A stretch of DNA of 64,000 nucleotides from Candidatus Latescibacterota bacterium (GCA_965197905.1 CBDAOB010000004.1:672001-736000), one strand, 5' to 3'. Shown: positions 1,218 through 10,380, numbered from the stretch's first letter. Notes: a model not told the origin generated them from the letters alone. A program made the numbers and translations.

Positions 1218-2447
1218 ATGATTCTCTCCGGAGAAAACGCCAATCACACAGACAACAGACCTCAGGGCATAGTGATATCTAGAGAGGATCCGGATCAGCA
1301 CCAGATTGTTCTCAGCGGCAAGGGGTTTCGGTTTGTCCGCGGTTTTCTCGGACTGATCGTGCTTCTCGCGGTCGTACTCGTCATCTCCACTCTCGTCATG
1401 AGTTGGAAGTTCGGTATGAACGTCACTGTTGAAGGAAAAGGTGTGGTAGAACCGGTTGACCGCCTTTGGGTCAAGGCACCCCTCAACGGACTCGTTGAGC
1501 GGATCCTCGCCAGGCAGGGTCAGCTTGTTGCAGAGAACGATACCGTGGTCGTGTTGGATACCACGGAACAGCTCGCCGAGATCCGGAAGTTGCAGAATGA
1601 CTTGGAGATCAACCGGAGCCGCAGACTGGAGCTAAAGCTGGAAATCGATCAGGAGGGCAGGGTAGGTGCTGCCAATCTACGAGGCGCGCATACGGACCTG
1701 GCGCGGGCACGGATGGAACTAGCACATGTACTCGCCGAGCAAAGATTGAGCTCGAATGGCGCAGCGATGTTCGCCAGAAAACCGATGGAAGAGCTTATCC
1801 CGGTTCAGAAGAGCCAGGCTCGGCTCGATAAGGCGTTGGCTGACTTGGACCTAGCGAAGAAACGGGGTTTCGTCGATCGCCGAAATCAGGAACTCGAAAC
1901 TCTTTTCAAACTGGGCGAAAAGCTGCGTCACGAGCTCGAAACCATCGCTCGAAGGATCGAGCGGAGCACGGTAACCGCAGGAATTGCCGGAGTGGTGCTC
2001 ACCGGTGATTTGTACCGACGGGTAGGCGACCGCGTGGTGGCTGGAGAGACCATTCTGGAGATCGCCAAGCTCAACCACTGGCAGGCCGAACTTGGAATTG
2101 CCGAACACGACATTCCACGGGTTAAGCCCGGCCAACGAACGCTTCTATACGTAAACGCCTTTCCTCACCTGGAGTTCAAGATATTCGAAGGGACCGTCAG
2201 CCACGTTCCCTCGGCCCCTGGTCCGGCCGTCGCCGGAGTGTCAGAAGGGTATCCGGTGAAAATTGGCGTAAAGAACCCACACGTTACCGATGGAATTGCG
2301 AAATACCGATTAGTTCCGGGAATGCGGGTGGAAGGATCCATCGTCGTGGAGCGCGCCCGGATTCTGGGAATCTTGTGGAAGCGGCTCCTGAAAGCGAGCG
2401 GGAAGCTGGAGAAGAAGAATGAACTTCAACTGCTGGACCCAGTATGA
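1218..2447 (+). CDS. HlyD-family membrane fusion protein (type I secretion / peptide export adaptor)
   Basis: N-terminal TM helix, lipoyl half-motifs (VKAPLNGLVERI..GQLV; TAGIAGVV), long coiled coil, C-terminal LVPGMRVEGSI. Confidence 0.9.
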   Translation: MILSGENANHTDNRPQGIVISREDPDQHQIVLSGKGFRFVRGFLGLIVLLAVVLVISTLVMSWKFGMNVTVEGKGVVEPVDRLWVKAPLNGLVERILARQGQLVAENDTVVVLDTTEQLAEIRKLQNDLEINRSRRLELKLEIDQEGRVGAANLRGAHTDLARARMELAHVLAEQRLSSNGAAMFARKPMEELIPVQKSQARLDKALADLDLAKKRGFVDRRNQELETLFKLGEKLRHELETIARRIERSTVTAGIAGVVLTGDLYRRVGDRVVAGETILEIAKLNHWQAELGIAEHDIPRVKPGQRTLLYVNAFPHLEFKIFEGTVSHVPSAPGPAVAGVSEGYPVKIGVKNPHVTDGIAKYRLVPGMRVEGSIVVERARILGILWKRLLKASGKLEKKNELQLLDPV

Positions 2448-4159
2448 GCAACTTGCTTCGCATGGTGTCGTTGTTGAAGCCATACTGGCGCTACCTTGGT
2501 CAGTCACTTGTCGTCGGAATATTGATCATGATGCTGCAGCTGCCGGGACCGTACATGACCAAAATCCTCGTAGACGATGTCTATCCGCAAGGTGACGAAT
2601 CACTCCTCTGGTGTATCCTGATCCTGGGATCCGTCATGACGATGGGGCTCGGACTCACCAATCTTTTGAGCGGATACTTCGGACAGTTCGTAGGCGTTCA
2701 CATGGGACTCGATTTTCAATCACGGTTCTATCGACACATTCAGTCCCTCGATTTCGGATTCTTCGACCAGCGGGAGACCGGAGCTATCATCTCCAGATTC
2801 GACGACATGTACCAGTCGATCACAAGTGTTATTCAGATAGTCAACTCGTTCGTCATGAACCTGCTGCAGTGCCTCATTTTTCCCCCGATCCTCCTGTTGA
2901 TCAATTGGAAGTTGGCGCTGGTAAGCATTGCCGTCCTGCCTCTCGACACCATTCTCGTGGTAACCACGAGAAAATACTTCAAGAGTCTGTCGGAACGCTT
3001 GGCTCAACGGTCCGCTGAATTGAATGCGCGCCAGTATGAATCGCTCAATGGTATCCGAGCAGTACAAGCGTTGGGGTTGGAATCGAGCTTCTATGTGAAA
3101 ATGGTCCATCTATTGAGCGCGGTGACAGACCTGCAACTTCGATCGGCTCTCTTGCAGGGAGGCACGAACTTCGTTGCAACGAGCATAAGAGCAGGCGGCA
3201 CATTCGCATACGGAATCTACGGATGGACCCAGGTTCTGGAGGGCCATCTTTCGCTCGGTTCGTATCTCGCATTCTCCGGCTATGTAGGATTCTTGTACGG
3301 ACCCATCGGGAATCTCGTAGGGCTTCTCGGACGCGTCGAGGTAACCCTCGTCCACGTAAATCGGTTTCTCGAGTTGTACGACCTGCGCCCATCCATATAC
3401 GACGAGCCCAACCAGAAACGGCTGGGAAGAGTGCGTGGACAGATTTGCTTTGAGGGCGTGAGCTTCTCCTACGATGGCAGGACGATGATCTTGCAGGAGA
3501 TTGGGCTCACCGTGCCCTCCGGATCGACACTCGCCCTCGTTGGTAGAAGCGGAACGGGCAAGTCGACCCTGGCCAAACTGGTCCCACGATTCTACGATCC
3601 AACGTCCGGCACTGTTACCGTCGACGGCGAGGACGTTCGCAACGTCCGTCTGAAATATCTGAGGGAAAACGTCACCTACTCGCTGCAGGGTAACAACATT
3701 TTCCATGGAACGGTGTTGGAGAATCTGACCTTTGGGCGTCCACTGTCGGAAGCCACCGTAAAAGAGGCAGCCCGCAAAGCACACATCCACGATACCATTG
3801 CTGCGCTGCGCGATGGATACGAGAGCCACGTGGGTGAACAGGGTGTGCAGCTATCCGAGGGAGAGCGGCAGCGCCTGGTGTTGGCGAGAATCCTGTTGCT
3901 CGATTCGCCCATCGTTATCCTCGATGAACCGACCTCGGCGCTCGATATGGAATCCGAATACCTCGTTCACGAGGCGCTCGGCAATCTCAAGAGAGATCGC
4001 ACCCTGATCGTTATCGCCCACAAGATTTCGACGATTCGAAGTGCGGACGAGATCGCTGTTTTGGACGGAGGAAGAATCGTAGAGAGGGGGGATCACAGCC
4101 AGCTGGTGAAGGCAGATGGATTGTATTCTCGGATGAACCAACTATCGGCAACGTTGTAG
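2444..4159 (+). CDS. ABC exporter, fused permease + ATPase, no N-terminal C39 peptidase domain
   Basis: ABC membrane domain; Walker A GRSGTGKST, signature LSEGERQR, Walker B IVILDEPT, H-loop IAHK; ATGA overlap with adaptor gene. Confidence 0.93.
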   Translation: MSNLLRMVSLLKPYWRYLGQSLVVGILIMMLQLPGPYMTKILVDDVYPQGDESLLWCILILGSVMTMGLGLTNLLSGYFGQFVGVHMGLDFQSRFYRHIQSLDFGFFDQRETGAIISRFDDMYQSITSVIQIVNSFVMNLLQCLIFPPILLLINWKLALVSIAVLPLDTILVVTTRKYFKSLSERLAQRSAELNARQYESLNGIRAVQALGLESSFYVKMVHLLSAVTDLQLRSALLQGGTNFVATSIRAGGTFAYGIYGWTQVLEGHLSLGSYLAFSGYVGFLYGPIGNLVGLLGRVEVTLVHVNRFLELYDLRPSIYDEPNQKRLGRVRGQICFEGVSFSYDGRTMILQEIGLTVPSGSTLALVGRSGTGKSTLAKLVPRFYDPTSGTVTVDGEDVRNVRLKYLRENVTYSLQGNNIFHGTVLENLTFGRPLSEATVKEAARKAHIHDTIAALRDGYESHVGEQGVQLSEGERQRLVLARILLLDSPIVILDEPTSALDMESEYLVHEALGNLKRDRTLIVIAHKISTIRSADEIAVLDGGRIVERGDHSQLVKADGLYSRMNQLSATL

Positions 4160-4204
4160 AAAGACCTCGGGGAGCTGATCGACACCACATCAAAGGAGAG
4201 AGCA

Positions 4205-4564
4205 ATGAGAACGTTGATTAAACGAAGGCCGAAGTCTTATAGTGGAATGGACTGCAAGGTTAGTGCCTATGGATCTGAGGATGGAGGATTCTTGGGCTCG
4301 ATGAGAGCTCTGGCTGACAGCGTCTTCAGCGGTGGGACTGTGGCTACGGACACCTTCAGCGTAGGTGCCGTTAGCGCACACTACACGGTCACTTCTCCAA
4401 TCAAGATCACGCCCACGAGTGCTACCTTTTCGGGACCTCTTCCCGTAAGTGTCGGAGTAAGCATAGCTCCGTCCACGACAAGCCAAGGTCCAACTCCAGG
4501 ACCAGATAGCTCGATAAACGGGGTAGGGACCTATAGTGCAGTCGCCGACGAAACCCGGCGTTAA
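4205..4564 (+). CDS. Putative precursor peptide / secreted substrate (119 aa, Ser/Thr/Gly-rich)
   Basis: Strong SD AAAGGAG upstream; basic N-terminus MRTLIKRRPK ending in VSAY-G; 19 Ser, 14 Thr, 14 Gly; lies between exporter and proteases. Confidence 0.7.
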   Translation: MRTLIKRRPKSYSGMDCKVSAYGSEDGGFLGSMRALADSVFSGGTVATDTFSVGAVSAHYTVTSPIKITPTSATFSGPLPVSVGVSIAPSTTSQGPTPGPDSSINGVGTYSAVADETRR

Positions 4565-4702
4565 TCGAAGTAAATCTTGGCTTATTGAAGACTGATTGAA
4601 CGGTGTCGAAGCTCCTCGAGGTCGGTCTTAGGTTGTCGACAGTGACGTAAAGTGGGCGCGGCTAGACTTCTGAGAACACTCAACTGCAGCGAGAGACCGA
4701 GA

Positions 4703-5452
4703 ATGGCGAGAAGTGTGAGTTGGCCGAAAGATGTGGACATATCCTTCCTTCGTGGAATGGTACTGCTGGTGGTCTTGTTCTTCGTGCCGCACCTAGTTCT
4801 TGACGCCTCGTTCAGAATGGGATTTCCAAACAACGTGGCAACCGTCAAGCACAGTATCGAGATGGCCCTCATCTATACTGTAGTCCTCGCAGTTGTTCTA
4901 GTTACGCTGAAGCTAGTTGGCCAGATCTCCATCGTGCCCTTCTTGCAGGTGAAGACTCTACTGCCTTCGGAGTTACTCGTTTGCGTATCCTTTGCAGCCT
5001 TGTTCGGCTTCTTTCAATTTTATGCTAGCGTTCCGTACGGAAGGCTGCTTCCAGATGTAGACTACATTCTTTTCTTTTTGGCGGGGCTCCTGGTACACTC
5101 TGTGCTATGGCCTCTGATTGAAGAGGTTATTTTTCGAGGTGTCGCGTTCGTCGCGCTGTTCAACTATAGCAAGAGCCGCCTCACGGCGTACTTGGGATCG
5201 ACCTTCCTGTTTACGATCTTCCACGCGCCTTCTCTTCCGAATCTCTTCCTTCACGCAACTACGGGTCTATCGAACGCACACCTGATCCTCATCGTCTCCT
5301 TCTCGTTTTTTGCAGCCTTTATATATGAACGGACGGGGAAACTCATGCTGTGCGTGCTGGCCCACGGTGTCGTCAACGGCATGGAGTTCCTTGGTGTCAT
5401 TGTTGGTTACATAGTCGATTTTCCGCTTCCAGAGGACGGACCGGGCAACTAA
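4703..5452 (+). CDS. CPBP (CAAX protease/Abi) family intramembrane metalloprotease
   Basis: Motifs EEVIFRG, FTIFH, AHGVVN; multiple TM segments; start uncertain (GTG 4652 or ATG 4703). Confidence 0.88.
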   Translation: MARSVSWPKDVDISFLRGMVLLVVLFFVPHLVLDASFRMGFPNNVATVKHSIEMALIYTVVLAVVLVTLKLVGQISIVPFLQVKTLLPSELLVCVSFAALFGFFQFYASVPYGRLLPDVDYILFFLAGLLVHSVLWPLIEEVIFRGVAFVALFNYSKSRLTAYLGSTFLFTIFHAPSLPNLFLHATTGLSNAHLILIVSFSFFAAFIYERTGKLMLCVLAHGVVNGMEFLGVIVGYIVDFPLPEDGPGN

Positions 5453-5453
5453 G

Positions 5454-7397
5454 ATGTCGAACGCTTTTGCTGGTCTCACTGGCGCCGGCACCAGAGTCGC
5501 GGTAGTCGATAGCGGGGTCGACTTCTCCCATCCGAAAATCGATGGCGCTCCATCGGGAGTCGGACTCCGATACGACGGGGGAAGGGTCGTCGAATCCGGC
5601 AACTTCGACGACGTTGTGGGTCACGGCACCGCGTGCGCCGGAATCGTAAGGAAAAGAGCTCCCGAAACAGACCTGATATCAGTCCGAATATTCGACACTT
5701 CACTGCAAACCCACGGACACAACCTGGTTGCCGCGATACGGTGGTGTCTCGAACACCACATCGATGTCGTGAATCTAAGCCTTGGAACGACCGACCTAGA
5801 TTTCCGGGATGTCCTTTTCGATGCCTGTCAAGAGGCGTTGGACGGCAAGGTACTGATCGTCGCAGCTCACAACAATGAAGAACAGGAGAGTTTCCCAGCC
5901 GTGTTTTCGAATGTCATCGGCGTCACTGCAGGTCGATTTTCCGATTCCAAAGCATACCGCTATCGACCGTTGAACCGCGTTGAATGTGTAGCTCATGGTG
6001 ACCTGCAGCGGGTCTGCTGGTTGAACTCGCGGGAGCTGCTCGTACGGGGGACGAGCTATGCAGCCGCCCATGTTTCGGGGATCGTCGCTCTGCTTCGCCA
6101 GGCCCATCCCCACTGTGACCTGAGTCGGATTCGTGAAGTTCTGATGAGACACGCGGCTCGGAAAGACAGCACCGTTTCAGAACGGGAAGACACGTTACCC
6201 CTGCTCGACGCCAGAAGAATCGGAAAGCGGATCCATCCTGTTCGTGTAGAGCTTCAGCCCATAAAGGCTGCGCTTTACCCGTACAACAAGGAGATGCACG
6301 CTTTCGTGCGTTATCCCGAGCTGATCGATTTCGAGGTTACAGGAGTCGCCGATCCTGCCGGCAAGGGCCTCGTGGGAAAGGATGCGGGTGAGGCGATCGG
6401 TGTCGGCGCGACGGGTGTACGCATCGCATCGCGACTCATCGACGCTCTGACGGACGCAGACACCTTGATTCTGGGATATGTCGACGAGCTGGGACGCATC
6501 TCAGGACGCGACTTCCTGCGTGAATCAGTTCAGACCGCGCTAGACAACGGCCTGAACGTATTCAGCTTCGTCCCGCTCCCGTTTGAGGGTTATGAGGACC
6601 TGCACCATTCGGCGCGAATGAAAAACCTGAAAATCACCTATCCCTGGGTTGCCCCAGACGCGTTACAAACCGCCATCGAGGATCCCAACAGATATGATCG
6701 GGTCCAGATCCCTGTGCTGGCAGTATGCGGCACCGGTCCCCAACAGGGCAAATTTACAGTGCAATTGGCGCTGCGCAGATCCCTATTGAGTATGGGATTC
6801 CGGGTGGGTCAACTGGGAACCGAACATCACAGCGAGCTCTTCGGTTTTGATGCGGCGTTTCCCATGGGTTATGCCTCTCCCCTGGCGATGCCGGTACAAC
6901 TTTTTGTGCCCTTTCTCGATTTCACAATGCGGGAGATCGCGCACGTCGGTAAACCTGATATCCTCATTGCCGGCTCGCAATCCGGCACGATACCGTATGA
7001 TATCGGTCTTCCGGACACACATACCCTGGCATCCATCGCTTTTCTTTTCGGTGTCAAACCGGATGGCTGCGTGCTTGTTGTGAACTCCATCGACTCTTAC
7101 GCCTATATACGCGACACCATAGCCGCCATTAAGGCCTTGGCCAAGGTCCCAACCGTGCTGCTGGCCATGAGCGACAAGGAGAAGAATGTTCAGAGCGCGT
7201 ACGGTCGCACGTGGATAAAACCCCGACAGTTGAGTAGGACAGAGATTTCGGATCGCCTGCGAAATTTGGAGGATAGCTTCTCGCTACCTGCTTTTGAGAT
7301 ATCGGATGGACACAGCCAACGCAGCATGACAGATGCGATAGTAAAGTACTTCACAGAAAGCGGTCCTGAGGATCCATGTCTGACAGCAGCGGCCTAA
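5454..7397 (+). CDS. S8 (subtilisin-like) serine peptidase fused to DUF1611-like Rossmann + P-loop domain
   Basis: Triad motifs VAVVDSG, GHGTACAG, GTSYAAAHVSG; no signal peptide; C-terminal half has GKDAGE and P-loop-like CGTGPQQGKFT. Confidence 0.8.
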   Translation: MSNAFAGLTGAGTRVAVVDSGVDFSHPKIDGAPSGVGLRYDGGRVVESGNFDDVVGHGTACAGIVRKRAPETDLISVRIFDTSLQTHGHNLVAAIRWCLEHHIDVVNLSLGTTDLDFRDVLFDACQEALDGKVLIVAAHNNEEQESFPAVFSNVIGVTAGRFSDSKAYRYRPLNRVECVAHGDLQRVCWLNSRELLVRGTSYAAAHVSGIVALLRQAHPHCDLSRIREVLMRHAARKDSTVSEREDTLPLLDARRIGKRIHPVRVELQPIKAALYPYNKEMHAFVRYPELIDFEVTGVADPAGKGLVGKDAGEAIGVGATGVRIASRLIDALTDADTLILGYVDELGRISGRDFLRESVQTALDNGLNVFSFVPLPFEGYEDLHHSARMKNLKITYPWVAPDALQTAIEDPNRYDRVQIPVLAVCGTGPQQGKFTVQLALRRSLLSMGFRVGQLGTEHHSELFGFDAAFPMGYASPLAMPVQLFVPFLDFTMREIAHVGKPDILIAGSQSGTIPYDIGLPDTHTLASIAFLFGVKPDGCVLVVNSIDSYAYIRDTIAAIKALAKVPTVLLAMSDKEKNVQSAYGRTWIKPRQLSRTEISDRLRNLEDSFSLPAFEISDGHSQRSMTDAIVKYFTESGPEDPCLTAAA

Positions 7398-7690
7398 CAC
7401 TTCGAGTAAAGACGACCATTGTAGTAGCTCTAAAACTCGAAATCGAGCCGGATCAGATAGCGGACGACGAGATCCTTTTTGAAGCGGGATTGGGGGTGGA
7501 CTCCGTCGCCATGATGGAACTCATCGTCGCCCTTGAAAACGAATTCGAGGTAGAATTCAGTGATGAGCTGATACGTATCGAGAACTTCGAATCCGTAGAT
7601 TCGATCGTTAAGTTGCTTGTTCCACTTTTGGAAGATTCCAGGATGGAGAAGGAGCCATGTTCCGCTCAAACCCAAAACGAGAATTTCTAA
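7376..7690 (+). CDS. Stand-alone acyl carrier protein
   Basis: Acidic, GLGVDSVAMMELIVALENEF phosphopantetheine motif. Confidence 0.88.
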   Translation: MSDSSGLTLRVKTTIVVALKLEIEPDQIADDEILFEAGLGVDSVAMMELIVALENEFEVEFSDELIRIENFESVDSIVKLLVPLLEDSRMEKEPCSAQTQNENF

Positions 7691-10380
7691 ATATTGAGTT
7701 GATGACAGACCCGGCGGCCAGAGATTGCCTCGAAGACATCCTGGCGTCTGTGATTTCCTGGTGGGGGCGTCGGTACGAACTGATGTTTGCGTCATCCTGG
7801 AGTTTCGATTTCAAACCGGGCCCAGGCGAGTTGGTGGGCCCCCGCCTTGATGCGGAGATATCCCCTGCCCTGGATCTGTTGGAGACTCACCATGGTATAA
7901 GAGTATCATTTGGAACGAGGCCGGTCGGGACCGACCTGTTTGCACTCGTTTTGAAGGAGATCCGCGGCGGACGTCCTGTCCTTCTCAGCCGAAGCCACCG
8001 CTCCGTGGCTGATCCTGGCTCAATCCCGCAGTTCGTCCTAGTCCTTGGATTTGACTATCTCCGCCAGGTCCTGTTCTATCGAGCCGCGGATGTGCGGGGC
8101 GCAACTACCCGGCAGGAAGGTTCCGTGCATGCCTTGCCACACAAAGAGCTGGGAGATTGGTCCGGTCCACACGCCACCTTTTCTGTCGGTGGCAACGGTG
8201 CAGCCACCTTGGATTGGCGACAGATTCTGCGGGATGCTGCTTTGCGGTTTCACGATCGCGATGGATCCGAGCACCGCTTCGTGATGATGGCGTCGTTTGC
8301 TCGGGAGATCGGCAGCATGGACATCAAAGCCGAGATACATGGGCATCAGAATCGGTATTGGGTGCCGCTTTTCTATAACCTCCGTCGAATTTCCCAGGGC
8401 CGTATTCAATTTGCATCGCTACTAAGGTTTCTCGAAGCACGATTCGATCTGCGGGAGATATCGGAAATATTGAGCGACTTCCAGAATGCGGGTCGCTCAT
8501 GGCAACTGGTTCGCAGTCTGATGATTAAATACTCACTGACTGTCGACGATCGTGCCTTGCTGAATCGAATCTCCACGCGAATTCTCGATATTGCAACAAC
8601 CGAGCAACAGCTAGCCGAAAAACTCATCCTGCTTGTCGACCGCGATAGATCCCGCGTAAGGAGCGATACGGCAAAACCGCCCGCACGTGATGAGCAGGAG
8701 ATGCGCACTGTTTCATCCATTCCCCGCCAGGAGGAAGGTTATGTCGCACCTCGATCGGCAATCGAGATATGCCTCGTGAGGATTTGGGAGCACGTGCTGG
8801 GGATGGAGAAAGTGGGTATTCTGGATAACTTTTTTGAGCTTGGGGGCGACTCACTGCTCGGCTTGAAGATCCTTGCCCAAATGCACAGAGCTGGATTGGA
8901 GATTGACGCTGGACAGATATACCAGCGTCAAACCATCAAGGAATTGGCAGCCGTGACCGGGATGAATACCTGCAGTGATACCGCTCAAGACCCCGAGACC
9001 GGTTCGATGCCCTTTCTTCCTCTACAGTACAAAGGCATTTCGGAGGATGGTCCCAACTACGGACTTGAAGGCGCTGTCAAATTCTACGCTCCGACGGTTC
9101 ACCATCTGACATCCGATCAGCTTGATCAGGTTGCCAATCGGCTGATGGCTCATCACGACGCTCTTCGGCTTCGATTCCCCCGTAATTTCGAGGACCGGCG
9201 CCCGACATTCTGTGAAACCTCGAGCGACTCTAGATGTTGGCAGTGGATCGACCTATCCGACGACCATCATTTGGACAGATCGGACATCCTGGACAGCGCT
9301 CCGGAGAAGGCGCGTTCTGTCATCGATCTGCACACCGGTCCTCTATTCGTGCTGCTGTATTTAAAAACGCCGTCGCACATGAAAAATGTTCTATGCATGT
9401 GCATCCATCACGTCGTTTCCGACGCCATCTCCAATGGAATTCTGGAAGAAGACATTCTGTCCCTTGCAGGTCAGGCAGCGGGGCACAGGAAGTTTCGTTT
9501 ACCTCGCAAGACGACCTCGATTAAGCAATGGTCCCACATGTTGTCCAACTACGCGCGATCTCCCGATACAAGAGAGGTCGACTATTGGAAGTGCAGACCA
9601 TGGGGCAAGATTCGCCCGATCCTGCCGGATCGCTGCGATGAGTCGTCAGTCGATCTTGGGAAGCTAATCACGGCCGATTTGACCGTGGGCGAGCGGATGA
9701 CCCGATCGCTTTTCAGCACCTGCCGGACGCTGAGCATTACCATTCACGAACTCTTGATAACCGGCCTGGCCAGAACCCTCGCCGGCTGGAGCGGATCGGA
9801 TGTGGTTCTCATAGAGCACATACATCACGGCAGAGATCCCGTTTTCGAAGGCACGGATTTGTCGCGAACCGTCGGTTTCTTTTCGCTCGAGGTTCCCGTG
9901 GTCCTGGAGTTGCCCGCGGCCAGCGGTCCCGAGGCCTTGCTCCAGGCAGTTTCCTCACAGATCCGCAACCTGCCGGCAAAAGGCATTGGCTACAGCCTGC
10001 TTCGTTACCTTTCGAAAGAGGAAGATATCGTCCGGTTCCTTGAGTCTATTCCTACCTATCAGGCGCGGTACAACGCCGTGATCGAACCCCATCTGGGCGA
10101 TCAAACGGCGGCTTGCGAAACCGATGGAAGCTGGGACGTCGAGTACTACGAAACTTCGATCTCGCCAGCCCGAATCGGTGCGACGTCATTCACCCTGGAA
10201 AACAAGCCGAGAATGGAGAAGAGGTGTCTCGTTCTGCCTCTCAGATTCGGACAAAAAGGACTCTTCTACAAGGAGACCGTGGCAAGAGTGGTCGACTCCT
10301 ACACGGACTGTCTGGAAAGATTCGCGGGACTTGGCCATGGTTTTCAATCCATGAAACCACGACTCAGAGAATGTGCGTGA
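7657..10380 (+). CDS. NRPS-like protein: BtrH-like N-terminal region + PCP + epimerisation-type condensation domain (no A domain)
   Basis: N-terminal DCLED..W.F..GRPV..LVLGFD plus helical tail resembling BtrH; PCP FFELGGDSL (Ser 8851-8853); HHVVSDAIS, LPRKTTS, HHGRD, DLSRTVGFF, PAKGIGYSLLRY. Confidence 0.75.
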   Translation: MFRSNPKREFLNIELMTDPAARDCLEDILASVISWWGRRYELMFASSWSFDFKPGPGELVGPRLDAEISPALDLLETHHGIRVSFGTRPVGTDLFALVLKEIRGGRPVLLSRSHRSVADPGSIPQFVLVLGFDYLRQVLFYRAADVRGATTRQEGSVHALPHKELGDWSGPHATFSVGGNGAATLDWRQILRDAALRFHDRDGSEHRFVMMASFAREIGSMDIKAEIHGHQNRYWVPLFYNLRRISQGRIQFASLLRFLEARFDLREISEILSDFQNAGRSWQLVRSLMIKYSLTVDDRALLNRISTRILDIATTEQQLAEKLILLVDRDRSRVRSDTAKPPARDEQEMRTVSSIPRQEEGYVAPRSAIEICLVRIWEHVLGMEKVGILDNFFELGGDSLLGLKILAQMHRAGLEIDAGQIYQRQTIKELAAVTGMNTCSDTAQDPETGSMPFLPLQYKGISEDGPNYGLEGAVKFYAPTVHHLTSDQLDQVANRLMAHHDALRLRFPRNFEDRRPTFCETSSDSRCWQWIDLSDDHHLDRSDILDSAPEKARSVIDLHTGPLFVLLYLKTPSHMKNVLCMCIHHVVSDAISNGILEEDILSLAGQAAGHRKFRLPRKTTSIKQWSHMLSNYARSPDTREVDYWKCRPWGKIRPILPDRCDESSVDLGKLITADLTVGERMTRSLFSTCRTLSITIHELLITGLARTLAGWSGSDVVLIEHIHHGRDPVFEGTDLSRTVGFFSLEVPVVLELPAASGPEALLQAVSSQIRNLPAKGIGYSLLRYLSKEEDIVRFLESIPTYQARYNAVIEPHLGDQTAACETDGSWDVEYYETSISPARIGATSFTLENKPRMEKRCLVLPLRFGQKGLFYKETVARVVDSYTDCLERFAGLGHGFQSMKPRLRECA

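Follow-up and report, generated by a model that had tools for sequence, protein, structure and literature searches.

How can a ribosomally made protein be matured by an operon that carries two carrier proteins and an epimerisation (E)-type domain and in which no adenylation enzyme is found? This question is raised by seven genes at positions 1218-10380 of a 64,000-nucleotide stretch of DNA from a Candidatus Latescibacterota bacterium (GCA_965197905.1, CBDAOB010000004.1:672001-736000; the whole stretch is called the window below). They encode an HlyD-family adaptor, an ATP-binding cassette (ABC) exporter, a protein of 119 amino acids (aa), a CPBP family protein, a fusion of an S8 protease with a DUF1611 module, an acyl carrier protein (ACP) and a 907-aa protein which joins a BtrH-like domain, a peptidyl carrier protein (PCP) and the E-type domain (table 1). 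The reading favoured here, held with somewhat more belief than doubt, takes the operon to be intact and to represent a rare version of a widespread, uncharacterised system for the maturation and export of ribosomal peptides or small proteins, with carrier-dependent transfer. Within this reading, a peptide-maturation system with the 119-aa open reading frame (ORF) as its substrate is probable, and the transfer of an acyl group from a carrier to the peptide has about an even chance of being correct.

The seven ORFs, all on the + strand and mostly overlapping or abutting, were found at exactly the coordinates given in an initial annotation of this DNA. Three junctions are overlaps of 4, 22 and 34 nucleotides (nt), one pair of genes abuts, and the two gaps measure 45 and 87 nt. 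Such overlapping genes form a pattern as in a translationally coupled operon, and no frameshift was seen in any of them. The assignments proposed for the HlyD protein, the exporter, the CPBP protein, the S8-DUF1611 fusion and the ACP agree with Pfam and NCBIfam. In the same two databases the seven ORFs gave no match to AMP-binding, ketosynthase (KS), thioesterase, radical SAM, YcaO or lanthipeptide-enzyme families, as had been claimed from the sequence for these enzymes, for adenylation (A) domains and for AMP-ligases, and the Pfam Radical_SAM model found nothing in the five flanking ORFs either. The exporter begins with its membrane domain; the C39-bearing exporter families of NCBIfam align with it only from profile positions 137-171 (TIGR01193 from position 144), and an N-terminal C39 peptidase domain is absent.

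The case for a peptide-maturation system starts with the 119-aa ORF, which the initial annotation had taken as the substrate. An AGGAG box lies 6 nt upstream of its ATG. The copy in G002, a genome of the same genus, differs from it by 23 synonymous and eight non-synonymous substitutions (dN/dS 0.10), of which 18 and four, respectively, fall in the core. Judged by these features, the ORF is a real gene under purifying selection. It is the likely substrate.

The N-terminal leader-like region and the rest of the protein differ in character. The leader pattern consists of a hydrophobic residue, a Lys, often a Pro, a Tyr and then Val/Ile-x-Ala-Tyr-x-x-Glu, often followed by Trp or Phe. Beyond it stretches a core rich in Ser, Thr, Gly, Pro and Val, without a conserved Cys. 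The Cys17 of the leader is replaced by Gly in G002, and thus the precursor of the window as a whole has no conserved Cys. In another genus of the same family, represented by G004 and G020, tblastn missed the small ORF. When the ORFs were read by eye, proteins of 124-126 aa with the same N-terminal pattern were found there upstream of the CPBP genes, and the same pattern adjoins S8-DUF1611 genes in many other genomes. The absence of a similar small ORF from homologous loci would have spoken against the cluster proposed in the initial annotation; such ORFs are present.

A hidden Markov model (HMM) of the leader was built from the first ~30 columns of 18 seed peptides. Against the six-frame translation of the 6.69-Mb genome of the window it gave a single match, the 119-aa ORF (E 3.5e-9), the next-best match having an E of 1.2. 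The model also picked up peptides outside the seed, in loci L124, L125 (where there are two), L127, L134 and, as a second copy, L130. Across the 24 aligned precursors (A2) Tyr22 never varies and at least 90% have Leu4 and Lys6, while conservation is lacking beyond the leader, where the cores are hypervariable. These cores are of three kinds, that is, Cys-containing, Gly/Ala-rich hydrophobic, and long and rich in Ser, Thr, Asp and Pro, the last being the kind of the window. The description of the substrate as Cys-poor holds for this precursor, but long Cys-poor precursors are a recurring subclass and not unique to the locus.

A conserved leader followed by a hypervariable core, and precursor genes which stand beside the enzyme genes and sometimes in tandem (three to five copies in L135, L167 and L179), are the marks of precursors of ribosomally synthesised and post-translationally modified peptides (RiPPs). 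By the alignments and the HMM, the 119-aa ORF belongs to a family of precursors which had no name so far and which share a conserved leader of ~29 residues. NCBIfam offers no match for it (at E<=0.01) or for ten other peptides of the family, and a protein atlas gave no usable match for the 119-aa protein. The tandem precursors of L135 (2410-3410), L167 and L179 share the leader and have Gly/Ala-rich hydrophobic cores.

The enzyme next to these precursors is the S8-DUF1611 fusion. Its Asp19, His57 and Ser201 in the S8 part and the P-loop Gly-Lys (432-433) in the DUF1611 part are invariant in the same 40 sequences. The S8 domain starts at residue 10, with neither a signal peptide nor a pro-domain, and by this architecture the protease is cytoplasmic. 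Its best NCBIfam match is QhpE-like (E 9.3e-43), at 146 bits against a cut-off of 165. In the DUF1611 half, both DUF1611_N and DUF1611 of Pfam score above their cut-offs. Relatives of known structure came from fold comparison alone, since phmmer with this half found nothing among the PDB sequences. In detail, residues 260-632 of the AlphaFold model (mean pLDDT 80.7) were superposed on the DUF1611 structures 2g0t (Z 29.9, rmsd 3.1, 319 residues aligned) and 2obn (Z 28.4, rmsd 3.0, 314 aligned) and on 7xrj, entitled 'N-acetyltransferase DgcN' (Z 24.2, rmsd 4.0, 305 aligned).

A prediction of the complex between the fusion and leader residues 1-45 gave a score of 0.60, the best of three controls giving 0.00, with a contact agreement of at least 73% between runs and a partner pLDDT of at least 53. 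Of 157 solved complexes 116 attain the mark set for this score, as do two of 215 mismatched pairs; at or below 0.60 lie only 18 of the 157 solved complexes, together with both mismatched pairs that passed. The P4-P1 preference of subtilisins would suit the Val/Ile-x-Ala-Tyr stretch of the leader.

Two observations on the fusion genes stand apart. Selenocysteine was considered for S8-DUF1611 rows with an in-frame TGA (e.g., L169-L172, L175 and L176) and rejected, as these TGA codons are the genes' own stops; they belong to S8-DUF1611 paralogues of 30-40% identity, read through at about residue 634. The fusion gene of L135 has an extra N-terminal region of ~440 aa without a Pfam match.

Is this gene set confined to the window? 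The initial annotation had presented it as a candidate new cluster; by the searches it is no stand-alone novelty. The S8-DUF1611 fusion gave 1037 database matches at E<=1e-3 among 8000 scored candidates, including some annotated from other phyla. The 120 matches listed all carry both Pfam domains, are 47-97% identical to the query and align with no less than 95% of its length. In the phylum, the fusion occurs in 88 of 168 genomes (E<=1e-30), in up to seven copies per genome, and the operon is one member of this larger system.

The surroundings of the fusion were examined in 20-kb regions around 60 S8-DUF1611 genes, taken in score order on long contigs of one phylum, with HMMs built from the first 20 loci (threshold for the BtrH-like protein, E<1e-10). 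An ACP is present in 56 of the 60 loci and lies directly downstream of the fusion in 43. The ABC exporter is found in 51, a BtrH-like protein in 40, HlyD in 23 and CPBP in 16; the PCP-E module is found in none. The leader is detected by the HMM at E<=1e-3 in 19/60, and in 38/60 when weaker matches judged by eye are counted (16 of the first 20 loci and 22 of the next 40).

Families recurring on the same strand in at least three loci include a six-bladed beta-propeller (14 loci), an AraC-type response regulator (13), redoxin (11), rhodanese (9), an RND pump (9), GNAT (8), TPR (8), GT28 (7), radical SAM (7) and MauE/DoxX (6). Neither AMP-binding nor ATP-grasp is among the Pfam-sampled same-strand families present in at least three of the 60 loci. 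That adenylation enzymes are lacking thus characterises the family and is no accident of the locus in the window. In a separate observation, the redoxin, rhodanese, MauE/DoxX and beta-propeller genes recur in sub-types with Cys-containing precursors, which hints at disulfide or sulfur chemistry there.

The genes are syntenic in related genomes: the operon is kept gene for gene in G002, and in G004 and G020 the order is precursor, CPBP, ABC, S8-DUF1611, ACP and BtrH/T/E (T, thiolation domain, i.e., the carrier). In the locus of G020 (L085:5770-6540) a 256-aa ORF, transposase-like by eye, stands between CPBP and ABC, and an ISL3 transposase lies inside another locus (L117:6362-7681).

What does the 907-aa protein add? 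Its N-terminus had been called BtrH-like, and the name holds through relatives and fold rather than through a direct Pfam match, as residues 1-350 match no BtrH_N and only DUF4872, at E 0.068. HMMER with these 350 residues found 554 proteins at E<=1e-3 among 1.84 billion representatives, and BtrH_N is carried by 13 of the 20 relatives scanned with Pfam. The relatives are stand-alone proteins of ~320 aa, proteins of ~525 aa, domains N-terminal to a PCP-C unit (C, condensation) as here or to an A-T unit, and domains C-terminal to the last T of nonribosomal peptide synthetases (NRPSs) or polyketide synthases (PKSs), in the orders A-T-BtrH, C-A-T-BtrH and KR-T-BtrH (KR, ketoreductase). The domains placed directly after the last carrier of such megasynthases (P0260, P0298, P0319 and P0345) look like chain-release domains which pass the product to an amine.

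Among the structures listed by VIA-align, residues 13-331 of the AlphaFold model of the 907-aa protein (mean pLDDT 76.9) superpose on AziU3 (Z 19.4, rmsd 4.2, 278 aligned), CtaG (Z 18.0, rmsd 4.1, 272 aligned) and CcbD (Z 16.8, rmsd 3.9, 282 aligned). The model thus predicts the papain-like fold with a helical C-terminal half that marks the BtrH/CtaG/CcbD group; phmmer with this domain found nothing among the PDB sequences. Foldseek with the whole models of this protein and of the S8-DUF1611 fusion gave mostly E/C domains and subtilisins. The sections of PMC7183216 on CtaG describe a BtrH/C39-type thiotemplated transacylase, which moves an acyl group from one PCP via Cys11 to the chain amine on a second PCP, and whose mutants C11A, H128A and D144A are all inactive. 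CcbD and LmbD join an amino acid, bound to a carrier, to an amino sugar through an amide; they use a Cys-His-Glu triad and a ping-pong mechanism, according to the part of PMC12945683 that deals with them.

These relatives suggest an alternative, in which a small thiotemplated molecule, distinct from the peptide, is the product of the carriers, the DUF1611 domain and the BtrH-like/T-E protein, as with the enzymes of closthioamide or of the butirosin side chain. The small ORF would then encode a leader-bearing bacteriocin or secreted protein which remains unmodified and has no more than the protease and the exporter in common with that pathway. CtaG, BtrH and CcbD all work in small-molecule pathways, as far as the sources on them go, and the BtrH-like relatives sit in NRPS/PKS lines. 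The presence of two carriers recalls the CtaH/CtaE pair in the corresponding sections of PMC7183216, and the variable cores contain no conserved residue that would be an obvious attachment site. However, S8 and DUF1611 are one polypeptide in all 120 listed matches of the 1037, and the ACP gene directly follows in most loci of the census, so that peptide cleavage appears tied to carrier chemistry. Building-block enzymes (A domain, ATP-grasp, KS) do not recur among the Pfam-sampled gene families of the loci, and in the Firmicute cassette discussed below a precursor and a peptide maturase likewise accompany TIGR04066 and TIGR04069 (PMC10731318, in the parts concerned). A separate product is accordingly regarded as unlikely.

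Within the N-terminal domain, Cys24, Glu26 and Asp27 are invariant in 14 sequences, and Cys24 aligns with the catalytic Cys motif of the family. The family profile (A5) aligns its Cys and His motifs with the C39 peptidase domain of ComA (E 0.0018). The position of the catalytic His is taken by Gln125/Phe126 in the protein of the window. It is not His in any of the seven T-E-fused members displayed, and the 14 sequences share no invariant His in this domain, although His is kept in most stand-alone and NRPS-embedded relatives. An acyl transfer of the BtrH type, as the initial annotation had put forward, cannot simply be assumed for this domain, since the His that CtaG needs is missing.

The PCP-E half is the clearer part of the protein. 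The first nine Foldseek matches of the model are PCP-E or E structures (E 1.6e-32 to 1.5e-29), the best being PCP2-E2 of PvdL (E 1.6e-32), followed by the PCP-E of TycA and of GrsA. VIA-align ranks TycB3(E) (Z 33.4), PvdL PCP2-E2 (33.1), the E domain of bacitracin synthetase (32.1) and TycA (31.0) above the best non-E structure (29.4), and the sequence identity is 22-26% to E domains versus 10-18% to the other structures listed. The fold ranking thus upholds the earlier assignment of an E-type domain. All 14 sequences retain His585, the second His of HHxxxD, and the Asp-Ser attachment motifs are intact in the PCP as well as in the ACP; with the Ser motif, the fold and this His, the region has the features of an NRPS PCP-E didomain. 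Additional E-specific core motifs are presumably present in the C-terminal domain, as we take them to be from the motifs of the literature. The genome of the window contains one phosphopantetheinyl transferase gene.

The loss of His gives room to a reading without any acyl transfer, in which the C39-related BtrH-like domain is a scaffold binding the leader or a carrier, the ACP and the T-E part are structural or regulatory, and only the leader is removed before export. The inactive C39-like domains of some exporters offer a comparison, and the missing His in the T-E-fused members and the alignment with ComA agree with it. Invariant catalytic motifs, on the contrary, are not expected of idle parts, and here Cys24, Glu26, Asp27, the His of the E domain, the P-loop of DUF1611 and the phosphopantetheine serine motifs of both carriers are all retained. 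Leader removal alone is, in our judgement, an improbable account of the operon.

The BtrH/T/E architecture without an A domain was seen in G000, G002, G004 and G020, four genomes from two genera, as well as in 14 proteins whose alignment shows the motifs to be intact. Full-length relatives are few, namely six at 40-92% identity and the copies of G004 and G020, and the N-terminal 350 residues match in five of 61 related genomes, once weakly. A profile search of genome contigs with the whole 907-aa alignment met the generic PCP motif, and the 77 loci kept match only residues 339-890. A metagenome search with the alignment of the N-terminal domain yielded three loci with BtrH-like, ACP and ABC genes and without S8-DUF1611. 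On these comparisons, the rare and informative part of the operon is the T-E-fused, His-less form of the BtrH-like domain, which was met with in just three genomes besides that of the window. The decay of a larger NRPS cluster, with loss of its adenylation modules and the 907-aa protein and ACP as its remnant, would fit the lack of an A domain in the operon and the 28-36% identity of the T-E part to the T-E regions of ordinary NRPSs in the 77 loci, but can be set aside as very improbable, as the protein holds the sole Condensation-family domain of a 91%-complete genome, the same A-less architecture recurs with intact motifs in two genera, and the genes overlap without a frameshift. For a partner A domain, no AMP-binding match was found in the operon, AMP-binding not having been searched genome-wide.

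Returning to a maturation system with carrier-dependent transfer, a route can be proposed from the gene content, family membership, folds, conserved catalytic residues, precursor family and synteny; what we infer from them is the whole of the chemistry, including which unit is carried and where it is attached. The leader of ~29 residues would dock on the cytoplasmic S8-DUF1611 enzyme, and the S8 domain would cut it off. The phosphopantetheine arm of the ACP would bear an acyl or aminoacyl unit in thioester linkage. Loading of the ACP would most likely fall to the DUF1611 domain, which is DgcN-like and the one conserved candidate for this step, given that the system has no adenylation enzyme; alternatively, this domain may use the ACP as acyl donor in place of acyl-CoA. 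The unit would then pass to an amine of the peptide, most likely to the newly exposed N-terminus, which is the simplest acceptor, given that conservation extends to the modifying enzymes and not to the cores.

In most relatives, the transfer could be made by the stand-alone Cys-His transacylase of the BtrH/CtaG/CcbD type. In the variant of the window, the Cys is kept, the amine-activating His is lost and a PCP-E is gained, which makes a thiol-to-thiol relay the simplest reading: the unit would move from the ACP to Cys24 and from there to the PCP, an alpha-chiral (amino)acyl unit would be inverted on the PCP-E, and the E-type domain or the DUF1611 domain would make the final transfer. The product would leave through the ABC/HlyD proteins, and the CPBP protein may provide immunity or an additional cut. 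The trimming, acylation or aminoacylation and export of a peptide, as first suggested, thus fit the anatomy of the operon, with the acylation step as the conjectural part.

Several points weigh against this route. The chemistry as a whole is deduced, and the product, its mass shift and the loaded carrier are predictions from sequence. For the loading of a carrier protein the operon offers a candidate enzyme at most, and DgcN itself is known as an acetyl-CoA-dependent N-acetyltransferase and not as a carrier loader. The complex prediction passed its mark weakly and yielded no interface. A core of 90 residues, beta-strand-like in character, is long for a RiPP. The BtrH-like domain is without its catalytic His and, given the inactive H128A mutant of CtaG, by analogy may not catalyse amide formation. 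In 20 of the 60 loci there is no BtrH-like gene within ~9 kb on either side of S8-DUF1611, and four loci are without an ACP; the 60 loci were not drawn at random, and genomes that are related do not count as independent.

How does the operon compare with known systems? The closest described one is the CLI_3235/CcpM-type cassette of Firmicutes, for instance in the SacP23 cluster of Paenibacillus polymyxa, for which the relevant sections of PMC10731318 give a TIGR04065 precursor, an ABC protein, a TIGR04068 radical SAM enzyme, TIGR04066, the ACP-related TIGR04069 and a subtilase. Common to both are a DUF1611-type TIGR04066 protein, a small ACP-type protein, a subtilisin-type protease, an ABC protein and a small precursor. 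In the operon, however, protease and DUF1611 form one polypeptide, the radical SAM maturase is missing, and HlyD, CPBP and the BtrH-like-PCP-E protein are added; the precursor is long, lacks a conserved Cys and has no TIGR04065 match. The likeness to this cassette, noted in the initial annotation, is thus real in that the DUF1611 half aligns from end to end with TIGR04066 (positions 2-360 of 361, E 4.9e-38), yet at 131 bits against a cut-off of 200 it is a full-length homologue outside the curated family. The ACP scores 18.1 bits with TIGR04069 (E 0.0028) against a cut-off of 70, general ACP models scoring better, TIGR04068 and TIGR04065 have no counterpart among the ORFs of the operon, and all scores to models of this type lie below the curated cut-offs. 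In the literature covered, no function was found for the TIGR04065, TIGR04066 and TIGR04069 proteins.

The window domain shares with BtrH (butirosin), CtaG (closthioamide) and CcbD/LmbD (lincosamides) the fold, the N-terminal catalytic Cys motif and the association with carriers, of which the CtaG system, like the operon, has two. It differs from them in lacking the catalytic His, in being fused to PCP-E and in its presumed acceptor, which would be a ribosomal peptide and not an aminoglycoside, an amino sugar or a beta-alanyl chain. The didomains of GrsA, TycA and module 2 of PvdL, which are the best structural matches and share the PCP serine motif and the His of HHxxxD, belong to NRPSs, whereas the didomain of the window stands behind a BtrH-like domain in a peptide-maturation operon of a genome without any other Condensation-family domain.

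DgcN (D-glutamate N-acetyltransferase, 7xrj), 2g0t and 2obn share the two-domain fold with the window at Z 24-30, at an identity of just 16-18%; unlike them, the domain of the window is fused to a protease, and an ACP is nearly always adjacent in the loci. QhpE, the leader protease for the gamma subunit of quinohemoprotein amine dehydrogenase, is likewise cytoplasmic and without a pro-domain, but the S8 domain of the window falls below its cut-off and has no QhpC/QhpD context. The goadvionins and lipolanthines are ACP-dependent N-acylated RiPPs, in which a PKS or fatty acid synthase builds the acyl chain and a GNAT protein transfers it. The concept of a ribosomal peptide acylated from a carrier after or during leader processing would be shared with them, while the operon of the window has neither KS nor A domain and its candidate transferases are BtrH-like and DgcN-like. 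A DgcN-DgcA pathway is mentioned in the portion of PMC10845958 concerned. No description of an S8-DUF1611/ACP system was found in the literature, subscription journals lying outside the coverage.

The S8-DUF1611/ACP cassette is among the commonest unexplained peptide-maturation gene sets, often with several copies per genome, and a precursor family with a recognisable leader makes its substrates predictable. A transacylase of the BtrH/CtaG/CcbD type is recognised as a frequent third partner, and the His-less variant with PCP-E points to an alpha-chiral, probably aminoacyl, cargo. In its boldest form, the system would give a new class of ribosomal-peptide products by an adenylation-free thiotemplate, in which the DgcN-like domain charges the ACP, the papain-fold transacylase relays the unit and the PCP-E inverts it, and an exported protein of ~90 residues is capped with a D-aminoacyl or another alpha-chiral acyl group at the N-terminus left by leader cleavage; this is rather unlikely as it stands. 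If true, non-ribosomal units would be joined to ribosomal peptides without any adenylation domain, which would be of relevance to RiPP and NRPS enzymology and to genome mining keyed on A domains, radical SAM or YcaO.

Table 1. Genes and domains of the operon, with positions counted from the first nucleotide of the window (TMD, transmembrane domain; NBD, nucleotide-binding domain)
Feature	Position	Strand	Evidence
HlyD-family periplasmic adaptor, 409 aa	1218..2447	+	Pfam HlyD_D23 E 6e-13, HlyD_3 E 3.8e-12
ABC exporter, TMD+NBD half transporter without C39, 571 aa	2444..4159	+	ABC_membrane E 8e-36, ABC_tran E 5.8e-30
Precursor protein, 119 aa	4205..4564	+	Leader HMM; no Pfam/NCBIfam family
Leader-like region of precursor, residues 1-29	4205-4291	+	Conserved across precursors
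CPBP/Rce1-like intramembrane protease family protein, 266 aa	4652..5452	+	Pfam Rce1-like E 2e-14
S8-DUF1611 fusion, 647 aa	5454..7397	+	Pfam Peptidase_S8 residues 10-241, DUF1611_N/DUF1611 306-617
S8 protease part of fusion	~5481-6176	+	Pfam
DUF1611/DgcN-like two-domain module of fusion	~6264-7355	+	Pfam
Free-standing ACP, 104 aa, Asp-Ser phosphopantetheine site	7376..7690	+	PP-binding E 1.9e-10
Three-part protein, 907 aa	7657..10380	+	Pfam PP-binding 373-432, Condensation 483-891
BtrH/CtaG/CcbD-like papain-fold domain, Cys24, without catalytic His	~7693-8649	+	HMMER relatives and fold
PCP of 907-aa protein	8773-8952	+	PP-binding E 1e-10
Epimerisation-type condensation-family domain	9103-10329	+	Condensation Pfam and fold

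The flanking genes lie on the opposite strand, by which the operon is bounded as a unit. Downstream are genes of the creatininase family, accA, an aminotransferase and argJ (Pfam), and upstream a 243-aa ORF (396-1127, - strand) is divergent from the operon. The G+C content is 52-57% within the operon versus 59-62% in the housekeeping flanks; this low value and the restriction of the N-terminal domain to five of the 61 related genomes are consistent with horizontal acquisition. A scan for promoters and terminators of the operon gave sites no more numerous than in shuffled sequences.

The gene of the creatininase neighbour has many paralogues. In G002 (L083:6413-7079) it is recovered by tblastn in two pieces, corresponding to query residues 7-57 and 129-301, and may be disrupted. 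The divergent 243-aa ORF has no Pfam or NCBIfam family and could be a regulator or an additional part of the system; a copy of 85% identity occupies the same place in G002.

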